NCBI GenBank assembly: GCA_026770705.1
Contig: JANJGN010000034.1
Span: forward strand, 3,534,001 to 3,598,000
DNA from: Isurus oxyrinchus
Lineage: Eukaryota
Reading direction: 5' to 3'
DNA length: 64,000 bases
This document shows, piece by piece, positions 5,201 to 64,000 of the stretch. Every line of letters starts with the position of its first letter. Position 1 is the stretch's first letter. A model generated the notes under the pieces. That model searched no databases. It saw nothing but the letters and a program-made list of their open reading frames with translations, and was not told where the DNA came from. Made by a program: the position numbers and the translations under genes.

Positions 5201-6486
5201 TCTCTCCAGCCACATACCAGCTCATGCAATGACCTTCCAGGATGTGCGCACAATAGGCAAAGCATAACTTCTAACCTGCGGAACATCAACTAATCAGATA
5301 GACATAGTGGTATTTGGCTTTTGATTTAAGTCCAGCGTAGGCTTTCAGATTGTTTCACGCCAGATGGGTTTCATATTTGCATGTTTGTATTGAAAATAAT
5401 TTTTGGGGCTTGGTATTTATGCAGTGAGCAACGGTGTTCTAGAAAGTATTGCATAATGTGAGTGAATTATTGTTCCTTACAACTTCAAATGCGTGTTTGC
5501 CACAATCCAGGCAAAACAGGCAATCACATGGCACTATTGTTATGTTTTCAATTTGAATATCATTCATTACGGCAGGGGTTGTTGAGTAATAGGAACTTCT
5601 GTTCCAGGATCCGACCAAATAGTAATTTTTTTGAAGTTATGAATGAGATGGAAAGTATTTGGATGGTATTTACCATTATTATTCCACGTTTCTCTTCCTT
5701 CTCTCTCCAGGGAAGTCCCATGTCAATCAGAGATCAGGGAGCTAAGTGAGCTGAGGGATACAGTGGTGCATGATTTGAGTGGATCTGAACAATTGCATAC
5801 GACAGATGAGCTCACTGTATGCAGGGATGAATCGAGGGGCTTGTTTCTTTTTTCTTTTCTGCCCGTTAACTCTGTTTGTTCCTTGAACCTTGAAGTCAAG
5901 GAGTGATACATATTAACTACCAGATAAGTAGCTTTGAGTGAAGAATATCGAGTTTTAATCTTGGCAGGAATCTGGGCAGAACGCTTATTGCTAATCTCAT
6001 AAACCATTACAATTTAGTATTCTTTTCCACCTTAGGTGGGAGGCAGGACCTTTATTTTAGAATTCTGTTTGTTGGAGGCAACCACGTACAGCATTTCTTC
6101 GCTATTGACACTGGAAAGTCGGCCATGGCTGTCACTTTTCCCATTACTGAGACCATCACTCATCAAAGATTTATCAATTGATTAATCAAAGTAATTGCAT
6201 GGTTCTTCGTTATTTTTCTGTGCAGAGCAAGAATTAGTTAACCGTTGTTAAATTGTTGCAATCAGAAATATGTCATGATAACCATCACTGTACTACACAT
6301 TTGTGAAAATTGTGTAGCGATGCACATTCTTTCGAATCTAGATACATTGTGCATTAAACTTGACGTGTTTGTTTACGGAAAGCCATGATTTCATAATGAT
6401 TGGGCAGTTGTCCAAAAATCACAAAATGACAAACTTGCATGATACACCTAAAGAAAGAAACAGACTTGGGCACACACACACATGCC

Positions 6487-6528
<42 letters not shown>

Positions 6529-8804: not shown

Positions 8805-8844
<40 letters not shown>

Positions 8845-8911
8845 CAACACACAAAAGCTCTCACACACATAAAGATAGTCACACACACAATGTCTATCTC
8901 TCACACAGATA

Positions 8912-8947
<36 letters not shown>

Positions 8948-26900: not shown

Positions 26901-29900
26901 AAACCGCTTTTATATTCTTATCCCCTGAAGCAAGGTCATCTCGATCTATTGCACAAATGCACTCTTTGATAAACATTGTTATCTGTGCACTTATACCTAA
27001 CTGTCTATTCTGCTCAGATGTCATGTATCCCTCAATATTAAAGACCCACTCTTTGTCGCCCTGTAGCCACATCTCCGTAATTGCTATCTGATCTTATTTA
27101 TTTACTTCAATGTGTGCCATTGATTCAATTACTTCCTTATAGGTGCTACACAAATTTGGATGTAGAGACTTCTGATCTGTCTTTTTGTACATTTCTAACA
27201 TCTAGACTTAAATGTTGATGTCTTAGGTTTTTTCCTCTCTGTCCCTTCCCACCATTGTCGGGCCTTTATTTTTAAATATTTATATTTTGTTCTCCTGTCT
27301 TGATCCTACACTTTGAATTGGTAGCTCGAACCAAGCATGATATATCAGCCCTATTATTTAGTATAAAGCCCTTTCTACTTTACACTTACTTAGTAACTTA
27401 TTGCTAACAAGTTTGCTTTTAGACTTCTCGAGGCAGAGAATGGTCATGCACAAATGCAGATATAGATGGCTCTTGCTGGGCATGAAAGTTTGGAGTTCAT
27501 TTTCACAACACCGCGCACAATTAAAATTATCGCACGATGTTACATTCACACATTTCGCTGATCAATTTGAACTTCAGCCTCGTAAACACCAAAATACCGT
27601 TTTTTATTATGTCGATCTTTAGAACCACTAATAAAAAGGAGCAGAGATAAATGAAAATTTCGCATTCAAAAAAATGTTCATAAAAGCAATGGATTGTTTA
27701 TTCATGTTACCTTTGGCTGCTTCGTCCGTCTTTTTTTCTATTATGGAGAACCACAATTACACAAGTTCCAAATTTATGCAAGTAATGCCCGATTTTTCAT
27801 TAAATTCTGTATCGGGAAGGAATCAGCATACTGGTGCTAATTGCTACATCTACATTTATGTTGGGTTATCTGATATCCTACTACAGATTTATGCAAATTG
27901 CCTAACGATGCAAACATTTTCGACCTTATCTATATCGTGACATTATTATTGAATGTGCAGTTTTAGAAAGAGATAAGCTCTTAGTGATTTTGCATGATTA
28001 CAATAATGATAAGATGAGAAGATGTGAGTTAACAAGCAAATGCACGCACACCACCACACCCGATACTCACCTATTGCTTTTAAAGAGTTTTGGCAGGCGG
28101 CCAATTCTGAACAACAGAAGAAAGCAACAGCTTAGTAGTGAATACAGATTTTTATTTACGGTCTTCAATCCAGTACAAGTTTGAGGAGGATGTTCTTCTC
28201 CTAAACTTGTTAGTCTGTGTTTTTGTTTATTTCAAATGTTGTAGTGGAGTTCATTGGAATTATTTGAGGCTGAAGTAGATCGAATCTTGATTGACAAGTT
28301 AATCAATGGTCATAGGCATTTAGAAAGGGCAGCAGGGTTGAGGGGAATTTCAGATACGTTATGATCTAATGAAGTTGTGGAGCAGACTCGAGTGACCAAA
28401 TGGCATACATTTTCCCCCAATTTTTGTTTCTACATCCTAATAGATATAGATTTATTACACGCGGACTACTGCCTATTTATCAAGCCTCCTGGTTATGAAA
28501 AAAAAACTAATAACATTCCAGAAGGAAACAACAAGCTTTTTTTCTCTGTAATCATGAGCTATCTCATCGACCATTCTCTCTCAAAATATAATTGGGCCAA
28601 ACTCTTGAAATCCCACTGTCGATATTGTGCAAGAGCACAAACATACCAGTTAAGAAGGGTGTCGAGAAAAGGAATTGACGGGAGGACGATATACTTCCAA
28701 GCAACGATGCTGTATGACTTGGAGGATACCTTGCAGGTTGTGGTTTTAAAATTGATCCGCTACCATTGTTCTTCTCGTTGGTTTAAGTAATGCTGTCCAA
28801 GATAGGTTAGAGAATTGCTGCCTTCCACCTTTTGCCTCATCCACACCGTTTCCAGTGTATTCTAATGTCAGAGGTACCGTTTGCTCAGAGCAAGATGGAG
28901 TATGGTTCAATTGGACTGCTTTGCTAAAGGTTACATCGATATTCCTCAGTTATTTTTAAATTCCACTCAGCCAGCGACATGGGGAGCATTCTATCAAAAT
29001 CCTGGTTTTTGACATAAAAATCGTAGAAATTTATTGGGAAGAGAGCAAGTGGTTTCCGTTGAAGAATTTGCAGCTTCTTGCTTCCTGAACCATCAAGTGC
29101 ATTGTATGGCTAAAAAAAAAAGCAAATTTTCTGGCCAATTGCAGCATCCAAAATTTTAATGCTGTCGAAATGGAAAAGCTCGTGCCACTGAATATGAGTA
29201 AGACATTGTTAGATATTCGATTGTTGGAAAGGGTCTTTTTCTCGCATTTCTAAGGCTCTTCCAATATGTTTCACAGTGCAACTCAAGTATGGATGAGCAT
29301 CGCACAATTTGTTATCCTGCTGGTTGGAAAATAATTGCTGAAGCATCTGAAGATGCTAGTTTCTGAGGAACAGCTCCAAGGTTTTCCAGTAAAAAAATGT
29401 TGATGCTGAGAAGATTTAACCATAACAACCACAGCCAAATTCTACTACACTAGATATGAATCCAACTATTGGTTGTTTGCCCACTGAATCCTAATTAATC
29501 CAACTTTGCTTAGGCACCTTTATGCCATTTTCTGTCAAATGCTCATCTGACCTAAAATGCAGTCCCTCTGACAAAGCCTATTGAGTTCAACCCATTCGCC
29601 CAAGTTTTGAGTCAGTCCGTAATGGGTTCAGAAGGCGATTGGCACTGGCAAAAACCCAATCTGAGCATCAATGAACATATATTGACTTTGCCAGCTAGAT
29701 GGGTGACCGCGTGGAAGTTGGGGTTATATAGTTTTACATGGACCACACAAACGCCTGAAGTGCATCGAGGAAATTATCAAAGCCAGCAGTAGCTGCTGTA
29801 CAAAATGCCTTTACCTATTCCATAACATCATTTGAACGGAATCAAAATCACAAATGAATGGCATCTGTGTTTCCAAGGACCACACGAGAAAGCAAAAATT

Positions 29901-32900
29901 GATCATCAATTGGGAACCCCTAGCTGGTAGAACATTGCAAATGTTCCAGCCTTGACTACTTCACAACTGTGCTGCCATCACACATCATTGTCGATATTTC
30001 GACAGCATTGTTTTTTGAATTGGTTTTGGCTCGTTGGTTGATCTCTACACGAACATTCATGTCAATGTGGCAGAACCGCAAAATTGTGCAATGATATTAA
30101 AGAAGGGTAATTAATGACAATTTCTAAAGTATCATTTTTCCAGTATAATAGATGGGCTCTTCAATATGCATCATTGCTTGTGGTGGTCAATTAGATTTCC
30201 ACTTCTAACTCTGGCCAGTGTCAACACGTACCTGCCTCCTTGTCTTTCAAAATCACCTCTGAATGTCAAAAACGTAATTGTGTAAAAAATGTGTTGAAAT
30301 TAATGTAATTAATGTTGCATCGATAAGGCCAAATCCAAACATTTTCTGCCATTGTGCAATGTGGAATACATTATCCAAAATATTAAAATTATGATAACAA
30401 CCACAAAAAAATGTGCATTTCTGAATCAGATTTAACATGCTGAAATATTTTAACTAATGTTCATACATAAAACCATGAGTCAAAGGGCATACAGTAAAAT
30501 TAGGAAGTTAAGTGAGTTAGAGGACTAAATGTCTGCGAAACGATGTTGAGTTCAAACAGAACCAAAATAGAATAACAAAGTTGAGGTAGTGAAAGTAGAA
30601 ATGCCATAGTTAACTGATTTAACAGATGAGGCCACCGTTCTGTTTGCTGGATCGACGGATGAAAGGGATGAACAAGAATTATGAATTCGCAAGGTGCACT
30701 AAAACTGGAATGTCAGAGATCTGGAAGCGAGGAAATTGACAGATCTCTAGGGAGAACTAACTATCGAGGAACAGAAATTAAGCAGTGAGGCTTTGGTGGA
30801 CATAGGGGAAATAGAAAGCGGATGAAGAACAGGCTTGAACTGAAAGGGGATAAGTATTTGGTAGCCTCATCTCACATTAGTGCCAGTAGAAGGATGAAAG
30901 CAGATGATGGTTTGTTGTTTGAAAGAAAGAATGGGATAATATTCAGATATAACGATACTTTGTATAGTCATAAACAAATGTATTAAAGCAAGTCTCTTTT
31001 CTCCCCACGTCTAAGGATTTAACCCTGCATTATTTAATGGAGGAAATGAAAGGCTCGAGTCAAATGATTTGAACTATAATTGATTTNNNNNNNNNNNNNN
31101 NNNNNNNNNNNNNNNNNNNNNNNNNNNNNNNNNNNNNNNNNNNNNNNNNNNNNNNNNNNNNNNNNNNNNNNNNNNNNNNNNNNNNNNNNNNNNNNNNNNN
31201 NNNNNNNNNNNNNNNNNNNNNNNNNNNNNNNNNNNNNNNNNNNNNNNNNNNNNNNNNNNNNNNNNNNNNNNNNNNNNNNNNNNNNNNNNNNNNNNNNNNN
31301 NNNTCTGNNNNNNNNNNNNNNNNNNNNNNNNNNNNNNNNNNNNNNNNNNNNNNNNNNNNNNNNNNNNNNNNNNNNNNNNNNNNNNNNNNNNNNNNNNNNN
31401 NNNNNNNNNNNNNNNNNNNNNNNNNNNNNNNNNNNNNNNNNNNNNNNNNNNNNNNNNNNNNNNNNNNNNNNNNNNNNNNNNNNNNNNNNNNNNNNNNNNN
31501 NNNNNNNNNNNNNNNNNNNNNNNNNNNNNNNNNNNNNNNNNNNNNNNNNNNNNNNNNNNNNNNNNNNNNNNNNNNNNNNNNNNNNATCTACCAATGCATT
31601 TACATAAGAATTTATCACATCTCCTGATTCTCCTTTCCCTAAAATATAAAGCCTTGGAGTAGGACCCCCTACTATTTTCTAGCCCGCTTTTTTTTCTCTG
31701 AAGTTAATTATTGAACTGTCATGTGGAGGTCTTTGCACCTAATCAGAGCATAACGTTGGGCAGTTTATTTCAATTTCTAATGGCTTAATCTGGAAAAATC
31801 TTTCTTGTATCCACCTGGTTATTATTTAATTTCTATCGGCATCTTCTGTTCTTGACACTTCCAAAATAGGTGACCGATTCTCCCTGTGAACTTCATCTAG
31901 ACACCTCACGGTTATGAGATAAAATGATATATAACTGTTGAATCCTGCTTCTACATGGTAACATTAGCCAAGTTCGAGAAAACTTCACACGTGTGAAGGG
32001 CTGCATAGCGAATAAATGTAACAGTTTCTCTCTATCTACCTCGTCCACAGCCCCCGTGATTTTGAGATACTGTGAAAAATATTGAGTTTACCAATCTCCT
32101 TCAATGGCAGGATACCTCGAGTTTCACAAAACTGCACATATGACTGAAGTCCTTCATCCAGAATAATGATACCTTTCATACGGTAATTACAGTTTTTTAA
32201 GTCCCAGATTTCTCCTTTTTGGTCAATACCCAGAACTGAACGCATTGAACGAGTTGAGGCTGAACGAGAATTTTCTAAAATCCATCATAATTTCCTATTT
32301 CTGGCCATTGGCAAATGCTGTGTTTTGCATTAACAATATGTGCACAGTGCCTCATATCTATACGTTCATGCACCCTACTAAGAATTGCATAATCGTCCTT
32401 ATTTTACATCTTATGGATATTTCCCCGAAAAAGAAAATTAAAAATCTTATTTCATAGCAATAGGCGCCACTGTGGTTCGTCTGCCACTTGCCTATCAGTG
32501 CAAAGGGATTACCAATTTACTGCTGGAGTCTGCCAGTATACCGTGCACATTTCACAACCCTTCCACGTTTGTTTTGAAAATCCGCCATCTGGTGCCAATG
32601 ATGTATGACATGCGGGTTGTTATTACCTTCCGACAATAATAAACAGATATCCGCCAATATTTTTTTTTTGTTTCCTGCCACTCCTCAAGCTTCATATTCA
32701 TGCCTGCACGGCCCTTTTATCCAATGCCTCTCAATCTCTTGACACAGTTATGTATTCTGCTCCAGCAATAGGAAACAAAGTTTTAGGGCAACCAAATATT
32801 GATAGCACATGTACATTATTCAACAAATTGAAACATCTTATGCCCTTATTAATTAACCACTTCTTTTGGAAAGGGTGGCAAGTTATGCTCATATAATATT

Positions 32901-35900
32901 GCATACCTGTAGTTGCGAGATTTTTCTTCACCCTTGCTAACTCTACAATTAAAGCAGCAAAGAGTGTCATAATAGTGAGAACCAGCAACAACACCATCCA
33001 TGATGTAGCGTACATTTGCACAGTGGCAACTGGGTGGAGAAGCAGAATAGACTTAGTTGCTTTATTTCAGAAATAAAGAAATAATGAAAAATAGCCAAAG
33101 AGGCCTCAGCTGTTTGAAGAAAATGGTATTGAATCAAAAAACCCCCAATAGGCAGGTTGATTGAACAACGAACTTCTACGTTTTTTTTTTAATAGGACAT
33201 CTTGTGATGTGGTGAGCTTCGAAGAACATGATCGATTAATGCTTGGTGGATGGGAGAATAGGCGGAGATTTGATTTGCCTTGTTCTAGGCTCGACAACAA
33301 GTGAATCGCTTTGCCAGCAATAACAATGGTAATAATGATTTAATGCTGCCGGTTACATTCAAGCATGAATTTGATCACAAACTCGAAACCTATTCATGCT
33401 TGTTAACGGAAACGGGCATTGCGCTGTTCTGTTATTTCCTTTGTAAACCAAATATCACAATGAATGCCGCTGTCCCTTTCTTTTCATGGCAATAACCCAG
33501 GGAATCCGTGCTTCAAAGGTATATTCATTTTCGAAATGGCATAAGTCATGAATCACTGCCTCACCATCTATAAAACTATTCGTGAAATATGCATTTCTAT
33601 TTACATCCGTGACGTTGCATGTTGGTCATGACAGCATCCAGGGCCATATAATTTTTTAATGTACAGAAGCAGGCCCTTCAGCGTATCATGCCATGTTAGC
33701 AATACTGTACCACACGTAGGTGGAACCTTATTATTGGCGATGCAAAGCAGGTCTAATCTCAATCTATTTACTGCTGGGTGTATTTTCTGGCACTTGTGGG
33801 GCTTGTATGCTATGTGTCACTTTCCAGCGGAAGCCTTGATGAATTTCCCAAACCTTGTTATTCTGATGGAGGGACAAAAATACATGAGGCAGCTGAAAAT
33901 GGTTGCTTCTGAGGAGCAACATTGAAACTCTCCAGAAGCAATACGTTAATGCAGCAAAGATTGACCTACGACAACTGCAATCAGTTTCCATTGTGCTAGC
34001 TATGAGGCTATCTAGTGGTTGCTTGCTGACTGATTATTATTTACTTCTGGTTTGCCCGAACTTCCTGATCCCATATTCAGGCAAATGTTCCTAAGTTGCT
34101 AAAACAGTCACTCTCGCAATATTTCTTGAGTTCTTCCTTTTGACCCATGTTTTGAACAATGCTGTAATGAGGTGAGGAATTGATTTCACCTGGTGACGGC
34201 GAATCCGAGGATCACTGAACAAATATCCACATTACAAGTTAGGTGAGTGACTGCGTTGATGTTCCACTTCTGCATGTTGCCTTCAACAACAATAACTTCT
34301 GAAGATCATCCAGCAAGTTATCAAAGCCAGCAGCCGTTGTTGTATAAAATGCCTTCAACTATCGCATGATAACAATTGAACGAAGTGTAAAAAAAAAAAA
34401 AATGTCAGTCATTTGTGCTGCTTAGATCGGCAAGAAGAGGCAAAAAATGATAATCAAATAGGATCCTGTATCTTTCTGAGTGTAACAAATGATTTAGCAA
34501 TGACGTTTTCACATCCATGCTGGACCCCGTCTCTCTGTGGATATTTGGCACCGTCTCTCTTAGTTTTTTTTGCTTGCAATTCATCTCTGCACCAACATTC
34601 ATGATAAAGGTTTTGCTGCAATGTAAAGGGAGGGTCAAGGTTGACAATTTCTAAGGTGTCTCTTTTCCACAGAATGAATGGCCACTCTACTGTATGTGTC
34701 ATTGCTTGTGGTGATCCAATGGATTTCCATTTATCAACTCTTAGCACTGTCAACAAGTACCTTTCCCTTGCCCCTCCAACCTTTCATCTGAGGGAGAGAA
34801 ACATAATTCTGTCAATAATGTGTTGAATAAATTGCAATGAACGTGGAATCAGTCAGGCCAATTCCATGTATATCCTGCTATTTTGGAATGTGGAGTGGGT
34901 GATCCGAAAAATGCAAGTAGTTAATAACAACAACAAAGAAAAAGGTGTTCTTCCAAAAGCACATTTCATATGGGAACATGCTTCAACAAAATTTGCAACA
35001 TCGAAATAAGATATGAAAGAACATATGACTAAAAACAGTGGGTTAATTATGTTGCATAACTAAATCGCTGGTAAGCAAGACATGCTCCCAACTGAATCCA
35101 AAGATAGTAATAGAGAAAGTGAGAGTGGAAATGCCATCGATATCAGCATAAAACGAAGGGGCCAACGCTGTTTTTGCCTGAGAGAAGAATCAGTGGTATG
35201 GACATGAATTCGGACTTCATCAGCTGCAGTACATGTGAAATCGCGTAGGTACGGAAGCCATTTCATAAACAGAAATATAGCTAGAATTTGTTAAGAAGGA
35301 ACATACTTTTAACCACAATAAACCTTTGCCAGGCGTGGAAGCAATAGAAAGCTGATGATCAAAAGGCAGGAAACCAAAGGAGATGTGGGATATGGCAACA
35401 TTGCTTTGCATTCGTTCCAGTAAAATGCTGATAGGAAAGGGAGTCTGGCGATTAAGAAATTGTTACATTTAGTGTGGGTAATCAGAAATAAATGCAATAT
35501 TTTGGAAAGCCACGGGCCCAAGTGATACAAAAATAAAGTATTTTCAACATCTTTATATTTAACACAGCCTTCTTTAATAAATAGCATGAAATGTTCAAGA
35601 AATAAAAGGTGAAAAGTTATTCCTGTTTTGCATTCGGTATCTATCTATGAATCTCTCGATCAAACGATCTCTCTCTCTCGATCTATCTAGCCGTCTGTCC
35701 GTCTGTCTGTCTATGTGTCTGTCTGCTATCCATCCATCTCGCTCTATTTCTCCATCTGTTTATATGTATATTTATTTAATGCATTGACTTTTTTCTCTTT
35801 GCCTAAAGTATGAATTCCAGTAGGATCACCACGTGCTATTTCCCAGCCCACTTTTGTTTTTATTTCTCGTACATTGATTATCAAATTGTCCCGTGGAATT

Positions 35901-38900
35901 CAATGCCGAACATAACCACAGCAGAATCTGTGGCAGGGCATTTCAACTTTTAACGTCTAAAACTCTAAATAACTAGATTTAATTTGCTTGTTTTGTTTTT
36001 GTCCTCTTATATCTAAGCTAATTGTTTTTTTTTACTTATATCGGCTTCTTCTGTTCTTGACACTTCAAATAAAGTTGCATGTATTTATATCTTCTTGGTC
36101 TAGAGCACTCATGATTTTGCGATGCCTCCATTAAAAAAGATGGATTTTACCCGTCTCCAACATGGAAATTTACCCCGGGTTTAACGAACCTGTACACTTC
36201 ACTGTAGGCCTTTGCCTAGAATCATGTTCCTCTGCCTAGTTTATTACATTTCTAAAGCCTCAGCTTCCTTCCTAAACTGTTCTATGCAGAACGGTATGCA
36301 ATTTATCTCTTGAGGCTGAAAGATGATTTCCTGAATCCCATTGGAAATCCCTGGTATGCATTTGTACACAAATCCTCTATTGATAAATGTGCTGTTGCCA
36401 CTTCCTTTCTTTCCATGTTGCAGTTTTGGATAGTTCCCTTTAACCATAAGTGCACATAAGCTCATTCCTATTTGTTGATGCAACCCTCCTAAGAATTGCA
36501 CCATTGTACTTATTTCGGATATTCTGGATCACCCTACAAAACAAAAAAAAATGCATAATTTGTTCGGTCTAGACATTTTTGTGTTTTGTCCGCCTTTTGC
36601 CCATCGGTAAATCCAGCACGCCCATGTACTCCTGTCGTCGACTAGTACGCTCATATTTTTCATAATGCTTCCGAATTTCATTCAGCTGCATTTGTTCATA
36701 AATTCTGCCATCTGCTCCCAATAATGTAAAAAAAAAACACCTGTGTTCATACTACCTAACATCAACGATAAACGACGTCCACCAATATGTTTTGTTTCCT
36801 ATCACACAACAGAGGTCTTGGTCATGCCTTTACGAATCTATTGTTCCAATAGCCCCCACTGAACTGCTAACTTTTCAACACGTTTATGCATACTGACCTA
36901 TAAATTGGAAACGGCGTTTTACTGTAACTAATTATTGATTCGACAGATGTATCAATTAACAAGGCAAAACCTTAGGTTTCCCTACTAATTAATTCACCAA
37001 TATTTTGGTGAAGGTCTTTTTATAATATTGCGCACCTGTATTTTGGAGATTTTTCTTCAGATTTGCTAATTCTGCGATTATAACAATAGAGTGTCAATTT
37101 AGTGACAATCAACAAACAATGCTGTTGCACGGAACATTATTATTATATTATTGAACATAGATTAGGTTACGTTTCAAGGATTAACTAGTGTAGATTCCAG
37201 AGAGTCGTCAATGGTTTGAGAAACAGAATCCAATTCTTTGTTTGGTTTAAGATAAAATCAATAAATGCAAACATTCCAAGGAGGCCTCCACAGACTGACA
37301 AAAACCTTAGCAGATGAGAAATACATCTGTAGGCAATAGGGATCTAAAACGACTTTTTCATTTGTTTAAAGAAAGTTTTATGGCATCCAAAGCCTTTTTT
37401 GAACGTGATCGATTCTTACATGATAAACAAGATGGTCAGCTGAGTTTTGATTTTTGTCGCTGTGTATTGGACGACTGGGGAACAGAATTCCAGAAATATT
37501 AACGGGTGGGGGAGTTAATAATACGAGTTTCGTTGAAACGTAAGTTGAATACAAAATTCTAAATTTAATGATGCATCATAAGAGACGGATATTGCACTGT
37601 TTTTTTTTTGTTTTCTTCATTGCTTTTTGTAGAATATAACATAGCAAGTAATACCGATAAGTGTTTCTTTTCATATCAGGGATTCTGTGCTCTAATGAGG
37701 ATTGATGTTGTGATTGGGGTAACTCCTGTAGTAAATCGTGCCTCTCCATCTGTTTACATATCCCAGGAGAATTCACTTCCATTAGGATCGGTGCAATTGC
37801 ATCTTCGTCATCATGTTATCCACAGCCATTGAAATTTTCACAGTACAGAAGTAGGCCCTTCATTACATTGTGCCATTTTGGCAAAATTGTGGCATATTTA
37901 GATGCAACTTGACGATTTGCTTTTGCACACCGGGCCTAATGACAGTCTGCTTACTGCGGGGTGCAGAAAGAAAGCCGTACTCAAACTGCTGCAAGCCAAT
38001 GTCACATGATTAACGGGAGGTGTCGTCTATAATTCTGAAATGTTTCTGATGGTGGCATGTTGGAATAATGAGCACCAGTTTTCACGGTTAATCAAACCAA
38101 TCCCGCAAGTCCCACCCCAGATGTTCCAGAATATCAGTTGGAATCGGATAATCACTCCTGTAAATGTAATGCTATTTTAAATAATTAATATATGCTTAGG
38201 GAAATGAGGAACTATCTGAGGAAAAAATAACAATTTCGATCCAATTGTTGTTCTGGCAGAGTTAGCCTCTTGCCCTTAGAAGGCGTGGCCTATGTTTTGC
38301 TCTAGCCCATGAGCAACGTGTTCATTCCGAAATGCACTCAGGATTCGCTCCATGGTAATCAATGTTGCATCGTTCTTTGCTTTTTGTGTTCGTTTGTTGA
38401 CCTCTACACCAACATTCAGAACGAAATGACACAATTGCAAGAGTTTGCAACAATACCATTGAAGGCTAAATAGTGACAATTTTTAAGGTCTCTGTTTTAC
38501 AGCATAATAGATCGGCACTGCAAAATGTGACATTGCTTGTGCTGATCGAATAGTTTTGTACTTCTGAACTCTGAAAATTGTCAACAAGTACCTCCCTCTT
38601 TGTCTTTCAACATTGACTCTGTGGGTGAGAAACATTATCAAGTCAGTAATGTCTGAATAAATTTCAAAGACTGTGTCATCAATATTGCAAATCGACACAT
38701 TTTCTGCTATTTTGCATGCGACGTGGAATGCCTAAAATAGGCCAATGGTTCCTAGCCGAAACAAAGAACATTTGCTTTTTTGAAAGTACATTCAACTTGG
38801 GAGCATGCATTGACAAATTGTCAGCCGTAGTATCACATTCAAATGGGCAAGTGTACAAATATTCGGTCAAGTATGAAAGAGGAATAAATGTCTGCTAAGC

Positions 38901-55768: not shown

Positions 55769-58700
55769 GTCTGTCTATCTATCATTCTACTATAAATCTA
55801 TAACTCTATCTACTTTTTTATCTATGTATCTATCTATCAATCAATCTATCTATCTATCTAGATATATATATATCAATCTTCTGATCTATGTGTATATTCA
55901 TTTGACACGTCGCTTGATTTTTGTTTGTTTAATATATCAATTCACGTCATATCTCTCTATGATTCCAACCCCCCCCCCCCCCCCCCCCCCACTCCAGATC
56001 ACATATTTTTGTTTTGATTTCCATTCAATTAATTATTGAATTGATTTGTGGTGGTCACTATGTAAATTAACGCCAGTGCAATCTTAGGTAATATCTTTCA
56101 ATTTTTAACCGCTTAATCTCTAAGATCCAATTTTCTTCTTCTTTCTCTTATTTCCACTGTAAATGTTATTCCAATTATTCCAGAATCTTCTGTTCTTGAC
56201 TCTTATGCAAAATGTGACGGTTTCCCTCTATCTATTTCGCATAGGGAACTCGATTTTGACTCACTTCGATTAGAAGAAGAATTATTCTCTTCTCCAATGC
56301 CGGAGGATACCCCGAGCTTCATCAATCTGGGAACACCAGTGAAGACCAGCAGCGCGACAGAACATTACACTGCACCTGCCTTTGCCTTATCAAAATTTTA
56401 AATTATATTGTACAGCATGGTATCCAGAATTGTAAGAGACGTATCACATGAGGCTGAACCAGAATTTCCTAAAATCCACAAAAGATGTCTGGTTTGCTTT
56501 TGTACTCGAATAATGAATTTATAAATCCCACACCATCGTTTTTAACCACATGTGCAGCTTCTGCCGTTACTGTTAACCATCTGTGCACTTGCCCTGATCG
56601 CTATTGACTCATGCACCCTCTTGAGAATTGTAGAATTGTACTTGTTTAGCATCTTTTGGACCTCCCGACGAAAACAATAAAAGGTTTCCCTTTAAAGATT
56701 TAGGCAGCAGTATGTTACGTCTCCTACTTCCATATCATTTCACTACCTTTCACTTTAATCTTGGAGTCAACGAGTATAGTCCTCACACTTCATAGACCTT
56801 CCACGTTTTAATCAGCTGTATTTGTTTTGGAATTCTTTCATCTTCTCCCAATAATATTTAAAATGCATCTTCTTGTTACCTTCTATCAAAGATTAACAGC
56901 GATTCCTTGTTGTTTACTGTAACTCAGCAGGCTTCATATCCATGCCCTCATGAAGCTTTTGCATCGTGTGTGCCCACTGACATGTCGAACTCTCGACACA
57001 TTTATGTATTGTCCTTCACAAATAAGAAACGTGTAAATAAATATTGATGTCACCGATGCCGCAATTGAAAAATTGAAATTCTTGATGTACCCTCTAATTA
57101 ACCCAACACTATTTGAAGCGGCTGACCAGTTCTGTTGTTATGCCACTGCACACCTGTTACTTCAAGATTTTTCTTCAGGCTTGCTAATTCTGAATCAAAG
57201 AGAAAGACAGAGTGCTTCATGTGTGGGAGCAAAGAACACAATTGCATTAAACATGAACTGTTATTGGTTTGTTCAATTTTGGTCAAGGACACAACTAACC
57301 AGAATCTTGTCAAGGAGAATTAATGGTAATAATGAAGAACATCAGTTAGGACTAACACCTAATATCTGAATCAACAACAAATTACATCAGAAAAGAGCAT
57401 CTAAAATAAAAAACAAACTCTAATAACAAATAGCAGGGTAATTACAAAATAGGACCTGCCCACATAAAGGGGCTTTGTCGCTGTTGAACAGATGCCTGGT
57501 TCAAAGGTTCCACCTAGATGTTAGATGCAGCAGGTATGAGCTGTCCTGTAGAAGACAGTTGGAGAATTGCTGTGGTCACCCTGTTGCCTCGTCCACGCTG
57601 CCGCCTGTCGATGCTGGTGTTGGAGTTTCTGGATGCCTGAGGTGATGGAAGGATTGCCGTTCAAGTGGACTTCTTTGCTAAATGTCATGTGGATATTCCT
57701 GAGTGTTTTTGCAACTGCTTTGATTCAGGGAATTGTGGAGTATTCTATAATAATCCTCGTTGGACATTTCTAAATTATGGACATTTTCCGGGAAGTCGGC
57801 AAGTGGTTTTTCGCTGCTGAATATGCAACACCTAGCCTCGTATTGTAATGTCTGGCTAAGAAAAGTAACTTTAGTCATCAATTGCACCATCCAGGTTTCC
57901 AATGTTTGGCCAGCCAGGAAGGCCAGTACAAATCAATGTCACGAAGCAAATGTTAGATATTTAATTGTTGTAGAGAGTTAATTGTTGCTTTTGCATATCG
58001 TTGGTTCTGCACTTCACTTCGCAAAGCACACATGGGTAAGCTACGAAACCTTGCCCTGTAGGAGTGAAATTAATTAATGAGACATGGCAGATGGCTGTTT
58101 CTGAAGTACAACTCGGCTTTCCTCCAGTGGCAATACATTCTGCTGATAAAATTTTCCTAAAACAATTGTAAATGTTTTTCACGGTGCTAGGTGTGTATGG
58201 AAGGTGCTAGGCAAATGCTAACTAGTGAAATTTAGCTAACTGATACCCATTTCTTTGAACTTTGCTTGGGCCCCTTTTTCCTGAGATTGGTCAATGCTCC
58301 TTTGATGTCAAAATCATTCACACTCACGATGTATCATGGGGTTCAGCCTCTTTCGTACATGTTTTGACCTAGGCTGGAATGACTTTCAGAGTTAATTGGC
58401 CCTGTCAGCGCCCACACTGAGCATCAGTGAAGAAACATCCATGTGGCCGGCTAGCTGTGTGACAGCCGTCGCACTTGCACATTTTGGCTTAGACAGCAGT
58501 AAATTCTGAAGCTTATTCGGGAAGTTATCAACGCCAGAGGCAGCAGCTCTATACGTGCCTTCAACGATTCTTAGACATAACTTTAATGGAACCAAAATCG
58601 CAAATGACTGTCGTCTGTGTCTAGCAGCAGCAGGAGACAAATAGAATCATCAATAGGCATCTCCACCTTATGAATCGTACTTTCATTTTTATTTTTTTTG

Positions 58701-61700
58701 TTCGTGTCTACACCTCCATTCACGATAAAGTAACATTATTGTAAATATTTGCTATCATATAATAGGATGTAATTAGTGATAATTTCTAAGATGCCTCTTT
58801 TCCGGGCAAATTGATGGCAATATTTCGCATTGTTTGTGGTGATCAATCGCATTTCCACCTCTGAACTCTCAGCAAAGTCAACAAGTACCTTTCCCTTGTG
58901 CTTGCTGCATTTCCTCTAAGAGGGACAAACATAATTAGGGTCAATAATGTGCTGGAAATATTGCAAATACTTGTGGCAACAATACTGCCAAAACAATACA
59001 TTTTCAGCTACATCGCATTTGCCGTGGAATATACAAAAAGGCAAGGGCTGACATCAGTAACAAAGAAAGCGTATATTTGTAAATCCACTTTTAAAATGGT
59101 TTCATACTTTAACAAAATTATGAGCCACAAAATCATACGTAAATGGGCATGGAATAAAAATAGCATGCCAAGTATGTTAGACAACTAATTCTATGTTAAG
59201 CGACCTATTGTTCAAATTGAATTCAAAAGCGATGAACGAGGTTGTCAGAGTGGGATGCCACACCTAGCTACCCAAACAAATGAGGTCACCGGTGTCATTG
59301 CTTGGGCACTGAATGAGTAGAAGGAACAAGAATTCTGAATGCATGGGACGCTGAAAACGTGGAATGTCGTACGTGTGAAACCGAATATAAAGATAAAAAT
59401 CCATGTAGAATTTGTTAACAGGAACGTAGATTTAGCAAAGAAGATTCTCCAAAAGGGGCGGCAATAAACAATTGCTGAACAACGGGTTGGAACTAAAAGG
59501 ATTTTCGGATCTGGCAGCATACCCGATTATTTCATTTAGAAGAATGGAAGGAGAGGGCAGCTGGTGATTCAAAAAATGGGACAATCATTATGGATAATAA
59601 GAACGAATTTCGCATTTTGGACGCCATGTGCAAATATATTGAAGCAAAACCAAGTTTTCTACATCTAAGTTCTTAACGGTGCTCTCTTTAGCACAGGCCG
59701 TGAAAGGTTCTAGTCACTAAATTTGAACAACAATTCCAGTTCTTTACTTGGTTTCTGTGTATCTGTCTATGCATCTATCTAGTCATCTAATTATCTTTGT
59801 CTAAAATATCCAGTCAATAAATATATCTCGCTGTTTCAAAGCTTCTGTTTGTTTTTCTTAAATTAATACACCTTTTGGCTTGTAGAGGTCAGTATTGAAA
59901 ATAAACCCAGAACAATCTCGGGAAGTGCATTTCATTTATTTTTTAATGGCTTGAGTGCAAACAAACTTTTTTACTTTCTTTGTATCCATATTAATTGTCG
60001 TTCAACTTTTATAGGCATCTCCTGTTCTTGACACAACCAAAAATAAATAGTGACACTTTCTCTCTATCTTATTGGTCTAGAAAACTCGTAATTTTGAGAG
60101 ATTTCGAAAGAAAGATCTTTTACCCTTCCCTTATATGGTCGGATAGGCCGTGTTTCATAATACTGAAATCATCACTGAAGCTCTCCATTCAGAATGATGT
60201 TCCCTTACAAATACTCTTAACTCGTCTAAAATCTCTGCATCGTTCCTAAAGTGCTGTACACAGTATTTGACGGGATTTAGTAGTTGTGGCTGAACGAGTA
60301 TTTCGCAAATTCCAGCAGAAATTCAAGGTTTGCTTTTGTGCTCGATCCCTGAATTGATACAGACCACAAATCTGTGTTTCTTTTTAACCACGGTTTCGCC
60401 TTGCACTGTTTCCCTTATCCATAGATGTGGATTTCTTCATTTCTCTATGTTGACGCGCCATCCTAAGATTTGCACATTTATCCTAATTTTGCATGGGCTG
60501 GATTCCTCTCAAAAAAAGTTACATTTCATAGTTAAAGGCATTAGTGTATTTCACCAGTCACTTACTTATCAGTCCAAACAGCATGTTCGAGTACTCTAAT
60601 AAAGACCTCACGCTTCCTAAATCTTTCATGTTTGATTGAGCTGCTTTTCTGATGAAACTCTACGACCTGCTCGCAATAATATGGATATGCTGTGTTCCAA
60701 TTACCTTTCATAATCGAAAAGTAAACGTCCACAAATACGTTTTGTGCCCTGTCACTCAGCAAGCTTCATTTCGATGCCTGCTCGACCCTTGTATCCCATG
60801 GGTGACTACTGACCTGTCAATCTCTCGACACGTTCATGTATTATGATCCACACATAGGAAGCGGTGCTTTAGTGTAACCAAATATTGATGGTAATGATTA
60901 ATCAATCAACAAAGCAAAACCTGCGATTTCCCTACTAATTAATCGACCAATGTTTTGGAGCAGGTGACCCTTCCTATTGTTATTATATTGCACACCTGTA
61001 GCGTCGTGATTTTTTTTCAAAGTTGCTAGTTCTGCAATTAAAATAATAGAGAATCACATTAATGAGAACGAACAACTTGGTTGCATTGAACGTGGAATAT
61101 CATTGTTCACAACATGTATTACATTTCATCTATGATTTAGCCTGCACTGCACACAGTGGTAACGGTCTCAGAAGCATAAGCCGTGTCATTGCTTCATTTA
61201 AAATACAGCAAAAACAGAGGAAAATAGCTACCCTACTGTCCAAGGAAAATTGAAGTAGATGAACAAGATATCAGCAGGCAGGTTGATTCAAAAACGGCCT
61301 TCTTGTTATTTTTTTCTTAAAGTACACAACGATATGCATAGGCTTTGGTGAATGCTAATGATTAGAGCACTGCAGATGGGAGAATCAGCTGCGTTTTGAT
61401 TTTTCTTGCTGTAGCTTGGACAGCTTGCTACAGTTTGGACATAATGAGGGGCGGGCGACTTAAAAACAATTTCGTTCTAAATTTTCTCTTTGGAAAGTGA
61501 GCCTCTTTTAAGTACATGGCCTGTCCTATCTCTGGGACTAGTTCATAAGGAATGAGCCCAATCAAAAATTGCCCCATCACTCGCTCAATTTTAATCCAGG
61601 AGGCGACTTATTAATATTTTCTCAAGCACAATTATTTGTAGTAATTATGTGGTTCATTAAAAATAATGCCAAAAATCTGAAAGCAACAGAAACTTATATT

Positions 61701-63240
61701 TGCAAAGAGTACTAACATAATGACAACTCACAAAGCAATTAAGAGTCCACTTACAAAATATCACCTTACCACCCTTAATGGGACATTCAGACTATTGACC
61801 AAACGTTTGGTTCAAGAGTTGCTTTTCTTGGTAGAGGCAAGAGGAGTGAGAAGTGCTGTGGAAGTTACGTTGGAGAGTTGCTGCGGTCCATATGTTATCT
61901 CGGCCACGTTCTGCCAGTATATGCATGTGTTGGACGTACTGACAGTCTAAGGGTGAGGATGGGGATGCCGTTCCAGTGGACTCAATTGCTCAAGGTTAAG
62001 TCCTGAATGCTTGTGCCACTGTACTCATCCAAATGGGTGGTAAGTAACTTTTGGACATGTTTTGGGATGTCAGGAAGTGGCTTCTCGCTGCTGTATTTAC
62101 AATCTCTGGTTTCCTGTTTCATCCATTGTATTGTATGGCAAATATAATTTTCTGATTCATTGCACAATTCAGAATGTGAGTAGTTGGCGCATTAGATTGG
62201 CTACCGTCAATGAATGTGAAGAAGAAATGAAAAGATGTTGCATCGTTGGAGAGGGCCATTTTATGGTATTTGGGTCATTTTCGTATTATGTTTCACTTTG
62301 CATCGCAAGCAGGATATCGAACTGGATGGAAAGCTATTGATGAGGAATCTGAAGAAGATTTTTTTTAAAGAGCATTCAGGAAGTTCTCCAGTAGCAATAT
62401 GTTTGCTTTGACAAGATTTGCTTCTTACAAGAAACATTTTGCTTAGAGCACGGTACTCGTGCTTGTCTGCTCACTGATTCCCAGTTACTTTAGATTTGTT
62501 TGAGCTCCTTGATCCGATATTCGGTCAATAGTCATATGATGTTGATGACAGTCACTCTCACAATGTCTCTGGAGTTCAGCCCTTCGCCCTTTTTTTGACC
62601 AAGGCTGCAACCATTGTAGGATTCGATTGGAACTGTTGGAATCCAATCCGAACATCAGTGAACAAATACCAATCTCACTTGTTAAATGAGTGTCTGTTGA
62701 AGTTACACTTGTGTTGTTTGCCTTGAACCACAGTACTTTCTGAGGTTCATCCAGCAATTTGCCATAGGATGCAGCAGTTGCTCTGCAAAATGGTTTCATA
62801 TGTTCCATGTAATCATTTGAACGGCTTCAAAATCACAATTGACTGACATCTGTATTGCTAGGGACGACAAGAAGAGGCAACATTTATTCATCAAATAGTC
62901 ACCTCAAGCTTGATGATTGTCGCTAACCTTTCAGGCCTGACTTTTCACAACTTTGCAGAGATCGTTCATCATTGTATGTACTTGGGCAGCATCATTTATT
63001 CTTTTTATTTGTTTGTTTGTTGTACTTTACGACAACATTTACGACAACGTAACCAAACTGCAATCTTCTGCAACGATATAATTGGAGGGTAATTCATGAA
63101 ATTATCAATGTTATCTCTTTTACGCCCTAACAGATTTTCATTAGCGAATGTGTCATTGCATGTGATGATCAGTTGTTTTTGCACATATTCTCTCTATGGA
63201 ATGTCAACAATACCTTTCTCTTTTTCTTTTAACTTTTCCT
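2174..63240 (-). CDS. Partial multi-micro-exon gene (5' end outside window) encoding a long 21-aa-periodic coiled coil
   Basis: 23 AG..GT-bounded phase-1 exons splice in frame to [234 protein letters not shown]. The end of the CDS is uncertain. Confidence 0.85.
2408..2434 (-). CDS. 27-nt micro-exon (DQVKNEHVS)
   Basis: tttccacctcgtgtaccaacag|ATCAAGTCAAGAATGAACATGTTTCAG|gtaagg. Confidence 0.75.
2950..3750 (+). mobile_element. Highly degraded CR1-type RT fragment
   Basis: LAHIFNNS-like and xxKCxVxHxG-like remnants with many stops. Confidence 0.5.
4439..4660. mobile_element. Palindromic Penelope-derived element with probable target-site duplication
   Basis: ~90-bp inverted arms matching the terminus of the element near 41700-41790; flanked by aattttata at 4430-4438 and 4663-4671. 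Confidence 0.8.
6471..6620. repeat. (CA)n-rich microsatellite
   Basis: Visible CA runs. Confidence 0.95.
6700..6735 (-). CDS. 36-nt micro-exon ([12 protein letters not shown])
   Basis: cttttctgtgacttag|AATTATCCACGTGCCACAACTCGATAAAAGAATTAG|gtgagc. Confidence 0.8.
8458..8484 (-). CDS. 27-nt micro-exon (EKKLEEKGI)
   Basis: ggttctgtacaatag|AAAAAAAGCTGGAAGAGAAAGGCATAG|gtaact; splice sites resemble those of the exon at 27711. Confidence 0.8.
   Translation of the reverse strand, partial: KKSWKRKA
8803..9040. repeat. (CA)n-rich microsatellite
   Basis: Visible CA runs. Confidence 0.95.
9121..9156 (-). CDS. 36-nt micro-exon ([12 protein letters not shown])
   Basis: cttttctgtgacttag|AAATATCCAATTGCCTGAACTTGATAAAAGAATTAG|gtgagc. 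Confidence 0.8.
10038..10064 (-). CDS. 27-nt micro-exon (EDAIRGLNR)
   Basis: cttgtttgtttcaaatag|AGGATGCAATACGTGGACTAAATCGAG|gtaggt. Confidence 0.75.
10478..10513 (-). CDS. Possible 36-nt micro-exon ([12 protein letters not shown]), not counted among the 23
   Basis: catcctacattctcag|GATTTACAGTCAGGGATATAATTAAAAACGAAGAAG|gttaat. Length, phase and position fit, but the donor is weak and the peptide is unlike the other 36-nt exons. Confidence 0.3.
11900..13650 (+). mobile_element. Old CR1-type LINE (ORF1 remnant and endonuclease region)
   Basis: ARSIxxxxDEL-like start of the APE domain near 12615, YRPP motif near 12907, DHNMIEF near 13195; decayed. Confidence 0.65.
13654..14520 (-). mobile_element. 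Younger CR1-type LINE 3' fragment inserted antisense into the older copy
   Basis: [31 protein letters not shown] and LEYCEQF motifs; ataagaccataagac tail. Confidence 0.9.
14530..15190 (+). mobile_element. Old CR1-type RT region
   Basis: VPxGxVLG, YINDL and YAxDTR (YADD-like) remnants. Confidence 0.7.
15240..15860 (+). mobile_element. Degraded CR1/L2-clade LINE 3' fragment
   Basis: [37 protein letters not shown], the RT C-terminal motif. Confidence 0.65.
18555..18572 (-). CDS. 18-nt micro-exon (EAVKAK)
   Basis: TACTAAC branch point (18595-18601), then atattacag|AAGCGGTAAAAGCCAAAG|gtaggg; phase 1-1 and open. Confidence 0.6.
19380..21130 (+). mobile_element. Degraded CR1-type ORF2
   Basis: HDMIEI, FLSVFT, DKSxxP and [12 protein letters not shown]-like remnants. 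Confidence 0.65.
21900..22560 (-). mobile_element. Degraded CR1/L2-clade LINE 3' fragment
   Basis: Reverse-complement similarity to 15240-15860; related decayed pieces recur in the tandem units. Confidence 0.6.
22760..23480. repeat. G-rich interspersed element, unclassified
   Basis: Abrupt G-rich strand bias between LINE fragments; its ORFs are low-complexity. Confidence 0.4.
24318..27200 (-). mobile_element. ~2.9-kb degraded CR1-type ORF2 (endonuclease to 3' tail)
   Basis: [10 protein letters not shown] (endonuclease), [18 protein letters not shown] (RT) and a taagaacttaagaa tail. Confidence 0.85.
27711..27737 (-). CDS. 27-nt micro-exon (EKKTDEAAK)
   Basis: ggttctccataatag|AAAAAAAGACGGACGAAGCAGCCAAAG|gtaaca. 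Confidence 0.8.
28071..28106 (-). CDS. 36-nt micro-exon ([12 protein letters not shown])
   Basis: tttcttctgttgttcag|AATTGGCCGCCTGCCAAAACTCTTTAAAAGCAATAG|gtgagt (consensus donor). Confidence 0.85.
30232..30258 (-). CDS. 27-nt micro-exon (EVILKDKEA)
   Basis: tttttgacattcag|AGGTGATTTTGAAAGACAAGGAGGCAG|gtacgt. Confidence 0.85.
31087..31585. other. N gap
   Basis: Run of N containing four called bases. Confidence 1.
32907..32942 (-). CDS. 36-nt micro-exon ([12 protein letters not shown])
   Basis: gctttaattgtag|AGTTAGCAAGGGTGAAGAAAAATCTCGCAACTACAG|gtatgc. Confidence 0.85.
34761..34787 (-). CDS. 27-nt micro-exon (DERLEGQGK)
   Basis: tttctctccctcag|ATGAAAGGTTGGAGGGGCAAGGGAAAG|gtactt. Confidence 0.85.
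37036..37071 (-). CDS. 36-nt micro-exon ([12 protein letters not shown])
   Basis: ttgttataatcgcag|AATTAGCAAATCTGAAGAAAAATCTCCAAAATACAG|gtgcgc. Confidence 0.85.
38592..38618 (-). CDS. 27-nt micro-exon (ESMLKDKEG)
   Basis: tttctcacccacag|AGTCAATGTTGAAAGACAAAGAGGGAG|gtactt. Confidence 0.85.
39459..39606. other. N gap
   Basis: Run of N. Confidence 1.
40290..41790 (+). mobile_element. Penelope-like element 3' part (RT C-terminus, GIY-YIG endonuclease, terminal repeat)
   Basis: [26 protein letters not shown] and [31 protein letters not shown]; contains stops. Confidence 0.9.
41955..42300 (-). mobile_element. tRNA-derived SINE
   Basis: Homologous to 45660-46000; tRNA-like head remnant at the right end, LINE-like tail at the left. 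Confidence 0.6.
42586..42621 (-). CDS. 36-nt micro-exon ([12 protein letters not shown])
   Basis: gctttaatggcag|AATTAGCAAGCCTGAAGAAAAAGCTCGATGCTGCAG|gtgcgc. Confidence 0.85.
44441..44467 (-). CDS. 27-nt micro-exon (DGRLDEHGK)
   Basis: tttctccttctcag|ACGGAAGGTTGGATGAACATGGGAAAG|gtactt. Confidence 0.85.
45660..46000 (-). mobile_element. tRNA-derived SINE
   Basis: gagggcatatcagagtcaacc..ggagtcacgtgtaggccagaccaggtaag core; same family as 41955-42300. Confidence 0.6.
46231..46266 (-). CDS. 36-nt micro-exon ([12 protein letters not shown])
   Basis: gttttaattgcag|AATTAGCAACGCTGAAGAAAAATCTCGAAACTGCAG|gtgctc. Confidence 0.85.
47779..48919. mobile_element. Large inverted repeat formed by two Penelope 3' ends
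   Basis: Two ~570-bp arms centred near 48360; the right arm resembles 41220-41790. Confidence 0.85.
50430..50456 (-). CDS. 27-nt micro-exon (ENKLEEQLK)
   Basis: tttttctccctctcag|AGAATAAGTTGGAAGAGCAATTGAAAG|gtattc. Confidence 0.85.
51276..52169. other. N gap
   Basis: Run of N. Confidence 1.
52803..52868. repeat. (TA)n microsatellite
   Basis: Visible. Confidence 0.95.
53239..53274 (-). CDS. 36-nt micro-exon ([12 protein letters not shown])
   Basis: gttttaatatcag|AATTGGCAAGCCTAAGGATAAATCTTAAAGATACAG|gtacac. Confidence 0.85.
54780..54806 (-). CDS. 27-nt micro-exon (EEKLKDTEK)
   Basis: ttcctccttctcag|AGGAAAAGTTGAAAGACACGGAGAAAG|gtagtt. Confidence 0.85.
55696..55862. repeat. (TATC)n microsatellite
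   Basis: Visible; degenerate counterparts near 35637 and 59755. Confidence 0.95.
57154..57189 (-). CDS. 36-nt micro-exon ([12 protein letters not shown])
   Basis: ctttctctttgattcag|AATTAGCAAGCCTGAAGAAAAATCTTGAAGTAACAG|gtgtgc. Confidence 0.85.
58889..58915 (-). CDS. 27-nt micro-exon (EEMQQAQGK)
   Basis: tttgtccctcttag|AGGAAATGCAGCAAGCACAAGGGAAAG|gtactt. Confidence 0.8.
60996..61031 (-). CDS. 36-nt micro-exon ([12 protein letters not shown])
   Basis: ttttaattgcag|AACTAGCAACTTTGAAAAAAAATCACGACGCTACAG|gtgtgc. Confidence 0.85.
63214..63240 (-). CDS. 27-nt micro-exon (EEKLKEKEK)
   Basis: tttctcgctctcag|AGGAAAAGTTAAAAGAAAAAGAGAAAG|gtattg. Confidence 0.85.
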
Positions 63241-64000
63241 CTGAGAGCGAGAAACATAATTACTTCAATATTGTTTTGAACATAATGCAATGACTGTGGC
63301 TGCAAGAAGGCCAAAACCAAGTTTTTTTCTGCTGTTTAACATGTGGGTGGGATATGGAAAAATGCATTTAATTGCAATAAAGTAAAAATAGTAAGGCACT
63401 TTGATTAAGGACGAAATGTCTGGTAACAATTTTATCCAACAGAGAGTAACGATATACGGAGAGCAGAGAGGCCATAAAGAACTACATACTCAGCTCAGTG
63501 AACATGTGACGAATAAGTAGAAGGTACAAGAGTTCTGAATTCAAGGACGGAAAGAAATATCAAAAACAGTAGATATGAAGTGATGAAATAGGCAGACATC
63601 CACTTAAATTATCTTAGCAGGGAACACAGATTAAGTGACGAGTTTTAGCCAAACCCCGAAACAATGTAAAGTTGATAAACACAAGTTTGGCAACCAAACG
63701 GGATTTGGGATATCAAAGCATTAGTTTCGCATTACTTCAAACAGAAGGAAAAAAGAAGATGGCATTCTGTCGATGAAGAATTTCGGATAGTGAGTGTGGA
63801 TAATATGAAGCAAGTGTGATGTTTTGGACAATCATGTGCATATGTCTTAAAATACAAGTACGTTTCACACATCTAATTATTTAGCCCCGCCTTTTTTTCT
63901 TACAGAACACGGAATGTTGCAATAGCTAATGTTTAACGGTAATTCCTGTTGTGTGTTTTGGTATCTCTTTTTCTGTCCATTCATTCATCCGGCTATCTAT

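Follow-up and report, generated by a model that had tools for sequence, protein, structure and literature searches.

What kind of protein is lengthened by copying several kilobases of DNA to gain 21 residues, and does selection preserve the result? This question is raised by a stretch of 64,000 nt from the shark Isurus oxyrinchus (contig JANJGN010000034.1, positions 3,534,001-3,598,000; hereafter “the window”), which the initial annotation had described as a tandem duplication of a two-exon cassette, each copy adding 21 residues to a protein. This description holds, but it missed that the duplications are old and star-like, that the unit corresponds to three heptads of a coiled coil, and that the array probably represents only a small portion of a much larger micro-exon gene with a terminal B30.2 domain. 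We consider it probable that the array, i.e., 11 old tandem copies of a pair of 36- and 27-nt exons, forms one block of a single 500-kb gene, in which ~110-120 predicted micro-exons would encode a coiled-coil rod of ~1,100-1,250 residues with a B30.2 (PRY-SPRY) domain at its end. The architecture of this gene is proposed with good confidence, while a cellular role as a cytoplasmic tether, suggested by analogy, is tentative.

Anatomy of the Exon Array

Comparison of the window with itself reveals repeated units that are ~65% alike between 28.8 and 63.4 kb (array at 28,600-64,000, minus strand; positions are in window numbering unless assigned to the contig). Seven exons of 36 nt (A) and eight exons of 27 nt (B) alternate strictly on the minus strand: B at 63,214-63,240, A at 60,996-61,031, B at 58,889-58,915, A at 57,154-57,189, B at 54,780-54,806, A at 53,239-53,274, B at 50,430-50,456, A at 46,231-46,266, B at 44,441-44,467, A at 42,586-42,621, B at 38,592-38,618, A at 37,036-37,071, B at 34,761-34,787, A at 32,907-32,942, and the last B of the array at 30,232-30,258. 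All 15 exons are preceded by AG and followed by GT, terminate in G, lack stop codons, and have a frame that is open after two bases (phase 1-1). The array extends beyond the window: in full, it comprises 11 exons of each type and runs from 81,262 to 30,232. Four stretches of N occur in the window, none of which overlaps an expected exon position.

The distance from one A exon to the next is 3,645-7,008 nt (mean 4.8 kb, 10 intervals), of which the coding part of A and B together accounts for 63 nt, or ~1.3%. Introns of different units share an identity of 0.50-0.70, and the longer units in the window contain private repeat insertions: a retroelement-like interspersed repeat in the intron of one unit (40,288-41,792), and interspersed repeats that are private to the 7-kb unit (47,773-48,926). 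The initial annotation is borne out with regard to the 15 exons of exact length with AG/GT ends and an open frame, as well as the diverged introns with private insertions, while several of its figures need adjustment. About eight units had been counted, and the window indeed holds ~7.5, but the array continues outside; a unit size of ~4.2 kb applies to units without large insertions, but not in general; and the proportion of each unit proposed to be under selection, ~1.5%, is nearer 1.3%. The ELAxLKKNL-like consensus of the 36-nt exon is, as noted, spelled with synonymous leucine codons (CTA, TTA, TTG), but its leading E is a codon split over the exon junction. An intronic stretch that recurs near 31,832 and 36,037 was considered as exon B but rejected, as its length and donor are not conserved. 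A tetranucleotide microsatellite resides in an array intron (55,654-55,904), with many further copies across the locus.

A Three-Heptad Unit and the Predicted Length of the Rod

An A+B pair encodes 12 + 9 = 21 residues, i.e., three heptads. In the translation of the array (230 residues, no stops), hydrophobic residues occupy one heptad position in 94% of the 33 heptads, the position three residues further on in 33%, and each of the other five in less than 10%. Charged residues make up 52-82% at four of these five remaining positions and 42% at the fifth, and the junction codons mostly specify Glu or Asp. By the established rules for coiled coils, this pattern of a leucine stripe accompanied by a weak second stripe suggests that the array encodes a coiled coil, and the heptad register is continuous across both types of junction in genomic order. 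A d-type position that is hydrophobic in 33% of heptads would make for a weak core, however, which counts against the rod model. Outside the array, the sums of many modules are not multiples of seven.

The putative mechanism of lengthening starts from the symmetry of the exons: with phase 1-1 exons whose lengths are multiples of three, unequal crossing-over could add kilobases of DNA while preserving the frame, and duplication of an exon pair would therefore come at no cost to the frame. The three-heptad pair would also keep the register, and copies would therefore be retained, each adding ~3 nm of coil. At 0.15 nm per residue, the predicted length is ~34 nm for the 11 units and ~180 nm for the entire rod. 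Selection would act on the length and register of the rod, via splice sites, exon length and core leucines, and surface residues would be free to drift. The product would most likely be a cytoplasmic tether without RING or Ig domains, which dimerizes and presents two B30.2 heads at the tip of a long spacer. Its length might be tunable through micro-exon skipping, as in the tails of chicken BG proteins, and by analogy with these tails, it may serve as a tether or scaffold.

All exons are inferred to be joined in one transcript. Alternatively, the array exons could constitute a set of cassettes from which each mRNA draws a subset, resulting in many shorter rods of varied length. Since all exons are symmetric, any subset would remain in frame, and relatives do have isoforms that differ by one micro-exon block: in Narcine and catshark, RefSeq isoforms are distinguished by exact 9- and 6-residue blocks, as would be expected from skipping 27- and 18-nt exons. 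RefSeq isoforms of this kind rest on RNA. In addition, most models of relatives are short (automatic predictions, most of 170-460 aa), and size variation along with intron read-through is on record for BG in the available portions of PMC5938342. However, a free choice of cassettes does not sit well with a heptad register that continues, in genomic order, through junctions of both types and would be shifted if a single exon of 9 or 12 residues were skipped, nor with the model from the chimaera Callorhinchus (XP_042192744), which comprises 1,697 aa. On balance, we regard a subset-based use of the array as unlikely and favor its inclusion as one continuous block.

The Proposed Host Gene

Candidate micro-exons are not restricted to the array. 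A model of phase 1-1 exons, which scores splice sites and composition and was trained on 61 of the candidates themselves, detects 137, 125 and 108 candidates at three thresholds on the gene (minus) strand of a 501-kb span, compared to 18, 12 and 5 on the plus strand. At least 85% of the candidates are 27, 30 or 36 nt long; the middle threshold gives 106 candidates of 27 or 36 nt out of 125, and all 125 sum up to 1,241 codons, false ones included. Positions that are not scored by the model nevertheless follow a pattern: 36-nt candidates (n = 40) are hydrophobic at codons 1, 4, and 8 in 93, 93, and 88% of cases, and 27-nt candidates (n = 66) at codon 3 in 79%. About 5-18 candidates are expected to be false, e.g., 39,859-39,894, 43,191-43,208, and 24,509-24,547.

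Next downstream of the array on the minus strand is a 36-nt phase 1-1 candidate of the Cys-containing type (28,071-28,106), followed by candidates of 27 nt (27,711-27,737), 18 nt (18,555-18,572, less certain), 27 nt (10,038-10,064, weak score), 36 nt (9,121-9,156), 27 nt (8,458-8,484) and 36 nt (6,700-6,735), the latter being a younger duplicate of 9,121-9,156 with flanks that are 82-85% alike. The underlying 2.4-kb duplication (6,180-7,125 versus 8,519-9,547, 82-85% alike) copied one 36-nt candidate, and its aligned stretch contains no counterpart of the following 27-nt exon.

The terminal exon is located on the minus strand at contig 3,474,119-3,474,638, 60 kb beyond the window start; it starts in phase 1 and encodes a B30.2/SPRY domain (PF00622, E 3e-18, above cut-off) with a full-length match to solved B30.2 domains. 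It is the only B30.2 exon in 664 contiguous kb, lies downstream of the array on the same strand, and its frame is open. The orthologous model of Scyliorhinus canicula, XP_038668997, is 72% identical to the B30.2 domain, and four of its upstream peptides match, in the same order, four micro-exons that lie just upstream of the B30.2 exon. Judging from strand, phase and the order in the orthologue, the B30.2 exon is probably joined to the array exons, and the host gene would extend from contig ~3,975,000 to this exon, i.e., past the window on both sides.

Another possibility is that two or more genes share the 500-kb span. The array would then form part of a coiled-coil gene, BG-like or of another type, which stops short of the B30.2 exon, or of a membrane protein with ectodomain and transmembrane exons that escaped detection. 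Scans for signal-peptide and internal exons, matching of the chimaera N-terminus and inspection of the 5′ regions of neighbors did not reveal the first exon and returned only repeats or noise, and candidate-free gaps of 20-37 kb (around 240-309 kb) could be gene boundaries. Moreover, the models of two relatives open with a hydrophobic stretch, and blocks of 21-nt exons, the size typical of BG, occur in two paralogous spans. Against this stands that IgV, IgC and RING profiles have no match in the span, while the same profiles recover held-out controls at E 1e-16 to 1e-27; a RING or B-box match better than E 0.3 is absent from 1.66 Mb (control E 2e-27); and tblastn with chimaera BTN1A1 or cartilaginous-fish TRIMs yields no match outside the B30.2 exon. 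Between the host gene and the next (434-484 kb), none of 204 open reading frames of at least 62 aa reaches the Pfam cut-off. The only transmembrane-like candidate is the intronic extension of an A exon, and the scan, in which the first exon was not located, gave no convincing hydrophobic exon of phase 1-1. Finally, each span of this kind on the contig is closed by one B30.2 exon on its own strand. We therefore consider a division into several genes, or a membrane protein with missed exons, quite unlikely, and a single gene remains the preferred reading. A CpG-rich stretch of 500 nt lies at contig ~4,008,500 (L051) between the two divergently oriented micro-exon spans and is a possible shared promoter region.

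Selection and Age of the Array

The initial annotation had proposed purifying selection on the exons. When the 11 copies each of A and B are aligned together with 500-nt flanks, A exons prove more alike than introns (identity 0.76 versus 0.57-0.60), and none of 710 overlapping intronic windows reaches this value. B exons hardly differ from introns (0.64 versus 0.61), and 201 of 808 overlapping intronic windows are as good. Likewise, the dN of A is 0.29, about half the intron distance (0.55-0.63), while that of B, 0.53, shows no reduction, and dN/dS excludes 1 neither in A (0.69, bootstrap 0.35-1.62) nor in B (1.01, 0.45-2.52). The exon boundaries are a different matter: gap-free intronic windows with four invariant end columns do not occur in either alignment (0/710 for A, 0/808 for B), and at exon B, identity amounts to 0.76-0.78 in the acceptor region and to 0.82 at donor positions +3 to +8, both above the rest of the intron. 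In a neutral simulation, which uses intron-derived substitution and indel rates and assumes a star tree, a single exon stays intact with a chance of 18-28%, corresponding to 1e-8 to 1e-6 per 11 exons and to less than 1e-12 for all 22 array exons. An internal control is provided by an exon-like stretch in the A-B intron, which is decayed by indels and has lost its GT in most units.

Since neutral survival is this improbable, and since an exon-like intronic stretch at a homologous place has decayed, selection on the array is real, and it targets splice signals, exon length, frame, and heptad leucines. Constraint on amino acids is modest in the 36-nt exon A and undetectable in the 27-nt exon B. 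The earlier proposal is thus correct insofar as the exons are kept, but it overstated selection on their sequence; of the checks suggested with it, the comparison with intronic windows singles out A and not B, and dN/dS leaves both compatible with 1. A defunct segmental duplication or pseudogene whose conservation is only apparent, as the intron-like identity of B and the dN/dS intervals might suggest, is a highly improbable explanation of the array in view of 22/22 exons that keep AG/GT, length and frame at ~40% intron divergence, the indel-decayed exon-like stretch whose GT is mostly lost, and the open B30.2 frame.

The tree of the introns is roughly star-like, with long terminal branches and no more than two clear pairs. 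As units differ by ~40%, compared to ~6-8% between Isurus and a related species at the orthologous B30.2 locus, the array must be old. Reads of three sets (X1-X3) at the B30.2 locus cover introns too and behave as DNA of a relative that is ~92-94% alike; in read set X7, only repeats are covered at this locus.

Neighboring Paralogues and the Wider Family

Four paralogues of the B30.2 exon are found on the same contig at 2.71, 4.82, 6.40, and 7.50 Mb, within 4.8 Mb, with 43-45% identity. Their spans were sampled in stretches of 10 kb, with gene limits and exon totals of the paralogues being extrapolated. Predicted micro-exons on the strand of the B30.2 exon occur in 78 of 86 upstream samples, all of them outside the training data of the model, namely in 22/22 (2.71-3.43 Mb), 27/29 (4.10-4.82 Mb), 15/20 (4.96-6.40 Mb), and 14/15 (6.53-7.50 Mb), compared to 0, 2, 4, and 5 opposite-strand matches, respectively, and to a single match on either strand in 12 flanking or intergenic stretches. 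Every span terminates in a single B30.2 exon on its own strand. Judging from these patterns, the host gene appears to be accompanied by four giant genes of a similar kind.

Candidate blocks of 21-nt phase 1-1 exons, one heptad each, are present on the plus strand at 4.07-4.18 and 5.10-5.25 Mb (L076-L081, L128, L130); they may be 5′ parts of the neighboring giant genes or separate genes. About 110 kb past the last B30.2 paralogue, at contig ~7.605 Mb, an open frame on the plus strand resembles an Ig V-set domain (L156:5035-5469; sub-cut-off Pfam match, E 9e-5), and a second, degenerate copy lies near 5,900. On another contig (C21), one big cluster at 82-118 Mb contains well over 100 of 150 other scored B30.2 matches, which are 28-44% identical to the domain of the host gene.

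With five B30.2 queries, close relatives among the named matches come solely from cartilaginous fishes (catsharks, bamboo shark, basking shark, skate, rays, Callorhinchus). In a tree of 40 B30.2 sequences (midpoint root, limited sampling), 18 cartilaginous-fish domains cluster together with 100/100 support, and the sampled butyrophilins, TRIMs and long-coil proteins of teleosts fall outside this clade. A bowfin protein, P0296, was rejected as a family member, as it groups with ordinary TRIM/BTN domains. Six relatives that were scanned contain SPRY only, one of them with a sub-cut-off PRY match. SPRY is also the sole Pfam match of XP_042192744, which includes seven E-L-x-x-C-x-x-x-L motifs that resemble the 36-nt exons of the Cys type. 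Forty exon peptides score a mean best value of 23.3 against this protein, compared to 19.9 for shuffled sequence and 18.2-21.9 for three unrelated coils, which is a modest margin. The family appears to be described in none of the literature found in a search of main texts, mostly from outside subscription journals, and its fragments appear as automatic models with TRIM-like names.

These observations lead to a broader hypothesis, for and against which we see about even chances: cartilaginous fishes would possess an undescribed ancient family, represented here by five neighboring genes of ~0.5-1.4 Mb each that take up most of 4.8 Mb, and encoding rods of 1,000-2,000 residues from 100-200 micro-exons apiece with a lineage-specific B30.2 cap. 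Gene prediction pipelines would catch the last exons and misname them as TRIMs, and rod length would be set by duplication of exon pairs during evolution and by skipping of micro-exons in cells.

Comparison With Known Systems

With B30.2 present and neither IgV/IgC nor RING/B-box found, the shark gene fits none of the BG, butyrophilin and TRIM types as defined in the available text of PMC8813856 and PMC5938342. Heptad micro-exons are known as a means of lengthening coiled coils; apparently undescribed are the scale, the cluster of five genes, and the separate B30.2 clade. If the proposed architecture is correct, the locus would be an extreme case of protein building from micro-exons, with ~3.7 kb of coding sequence spread through 500 kb, in five genes. 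It would also illustrate cleanly that selection can act on the length and register of a protein and not on its sequence. Moreover, it would point to an unannotated B30.2 family common to chimaeras, rays and sharks, with a tail like that of BG and a head like that of butyrophilins, which bears on the origin of BG, butyrophilin, and TRIM architectures. Necks of C-type lectins (CD23, CD209) were dropped from the comparison once the B30.2 exon had been identified.

According to the available portions of two reports, the chicken BG (“zipper”) proteins share with the shark gene a long heptad region, which is encoded by dozens of tiny exons with codons split 1+2 at each junction, as well as a variable number of exons between genes and a tandem gene cluster (PMC5938342; PMC8813856). 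Unlike the shark gene, BG genes are described there with signal, single IgV, and transmembrane exons, with 27-38 exons of mostly 21 nt, and without B30.2. The shark gene, in contrast, has mostly 27- and 36-nt exons, ~110-120 of which are predicted over 500 kb, and a terminal B30.2 exon, while IgV was not found; only 5/125 candidates have the 21 nt of a BG exon. One BG tail regulates actin-myosin in gut epithelium, according to the available text of PMC5938342.

TRIM proteins resemble the shark gene in that a coiled coil, here predicted, precedes a B30.2 domain, but RING or B-box were detected in neither the locus nor the models of relatives. Database labels of family members, such as TRIM39-like, TRIM58, TRIM69-like, and A33-like, rest on the SPRY match only. 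The enterophilins of the guinea pig are RING-less and combine a long leucine-zipper repeat region with a B30.2 domain, an architecture similar to that predicted for the shark gene; the resemblance does not imply common descent. Mention of enterophilins is made in the accessible part of PMC13749957. Very long coils with a terminal B30.2 (PRY-SPRY) domain are also predicted for the teleost models P0075, P0085, and P0099 (1,228-1,576 aa), of which P0075 and P0099 have a signal-peptide-like start. As the B30.2 domains of P0075 and P0085 fall outside the cartilaginous-fish clade, the teleost rods look to have been built independently.

Butyrophilins (BTN1A1, BTN3A1, BTNL) share the order of a heptad region followed by a C-terminal B30.2 domain, and among solved structures, the family profile matches the B30.2 domain of BTN3A1 best (4n7i, E 3e-30). 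In contrast to butyrophilins, IgV, IgC, and transmembrane exons were not found in the shark span, the heptad region is long (~1,100-1,250 predicted residues), and the B30.2 domains of the shark family form a clade separate from chimaera and bowfin BTN1A1. Ordinary butyrophilins of cartilaginous fishes and variable heptad numbers in reptiles are covered in the available portions of PMC12841164, which do not report the shark family. H351 of BTN3A1 is a residue of the phosphoantigen pocket, as stated in the available text of PMC7348870. In the alignment, W350-H351-Y352 of BTN3A1 corresponds to D-S-G, so that the shark B30.2 domain carries a serine at the position of H351.
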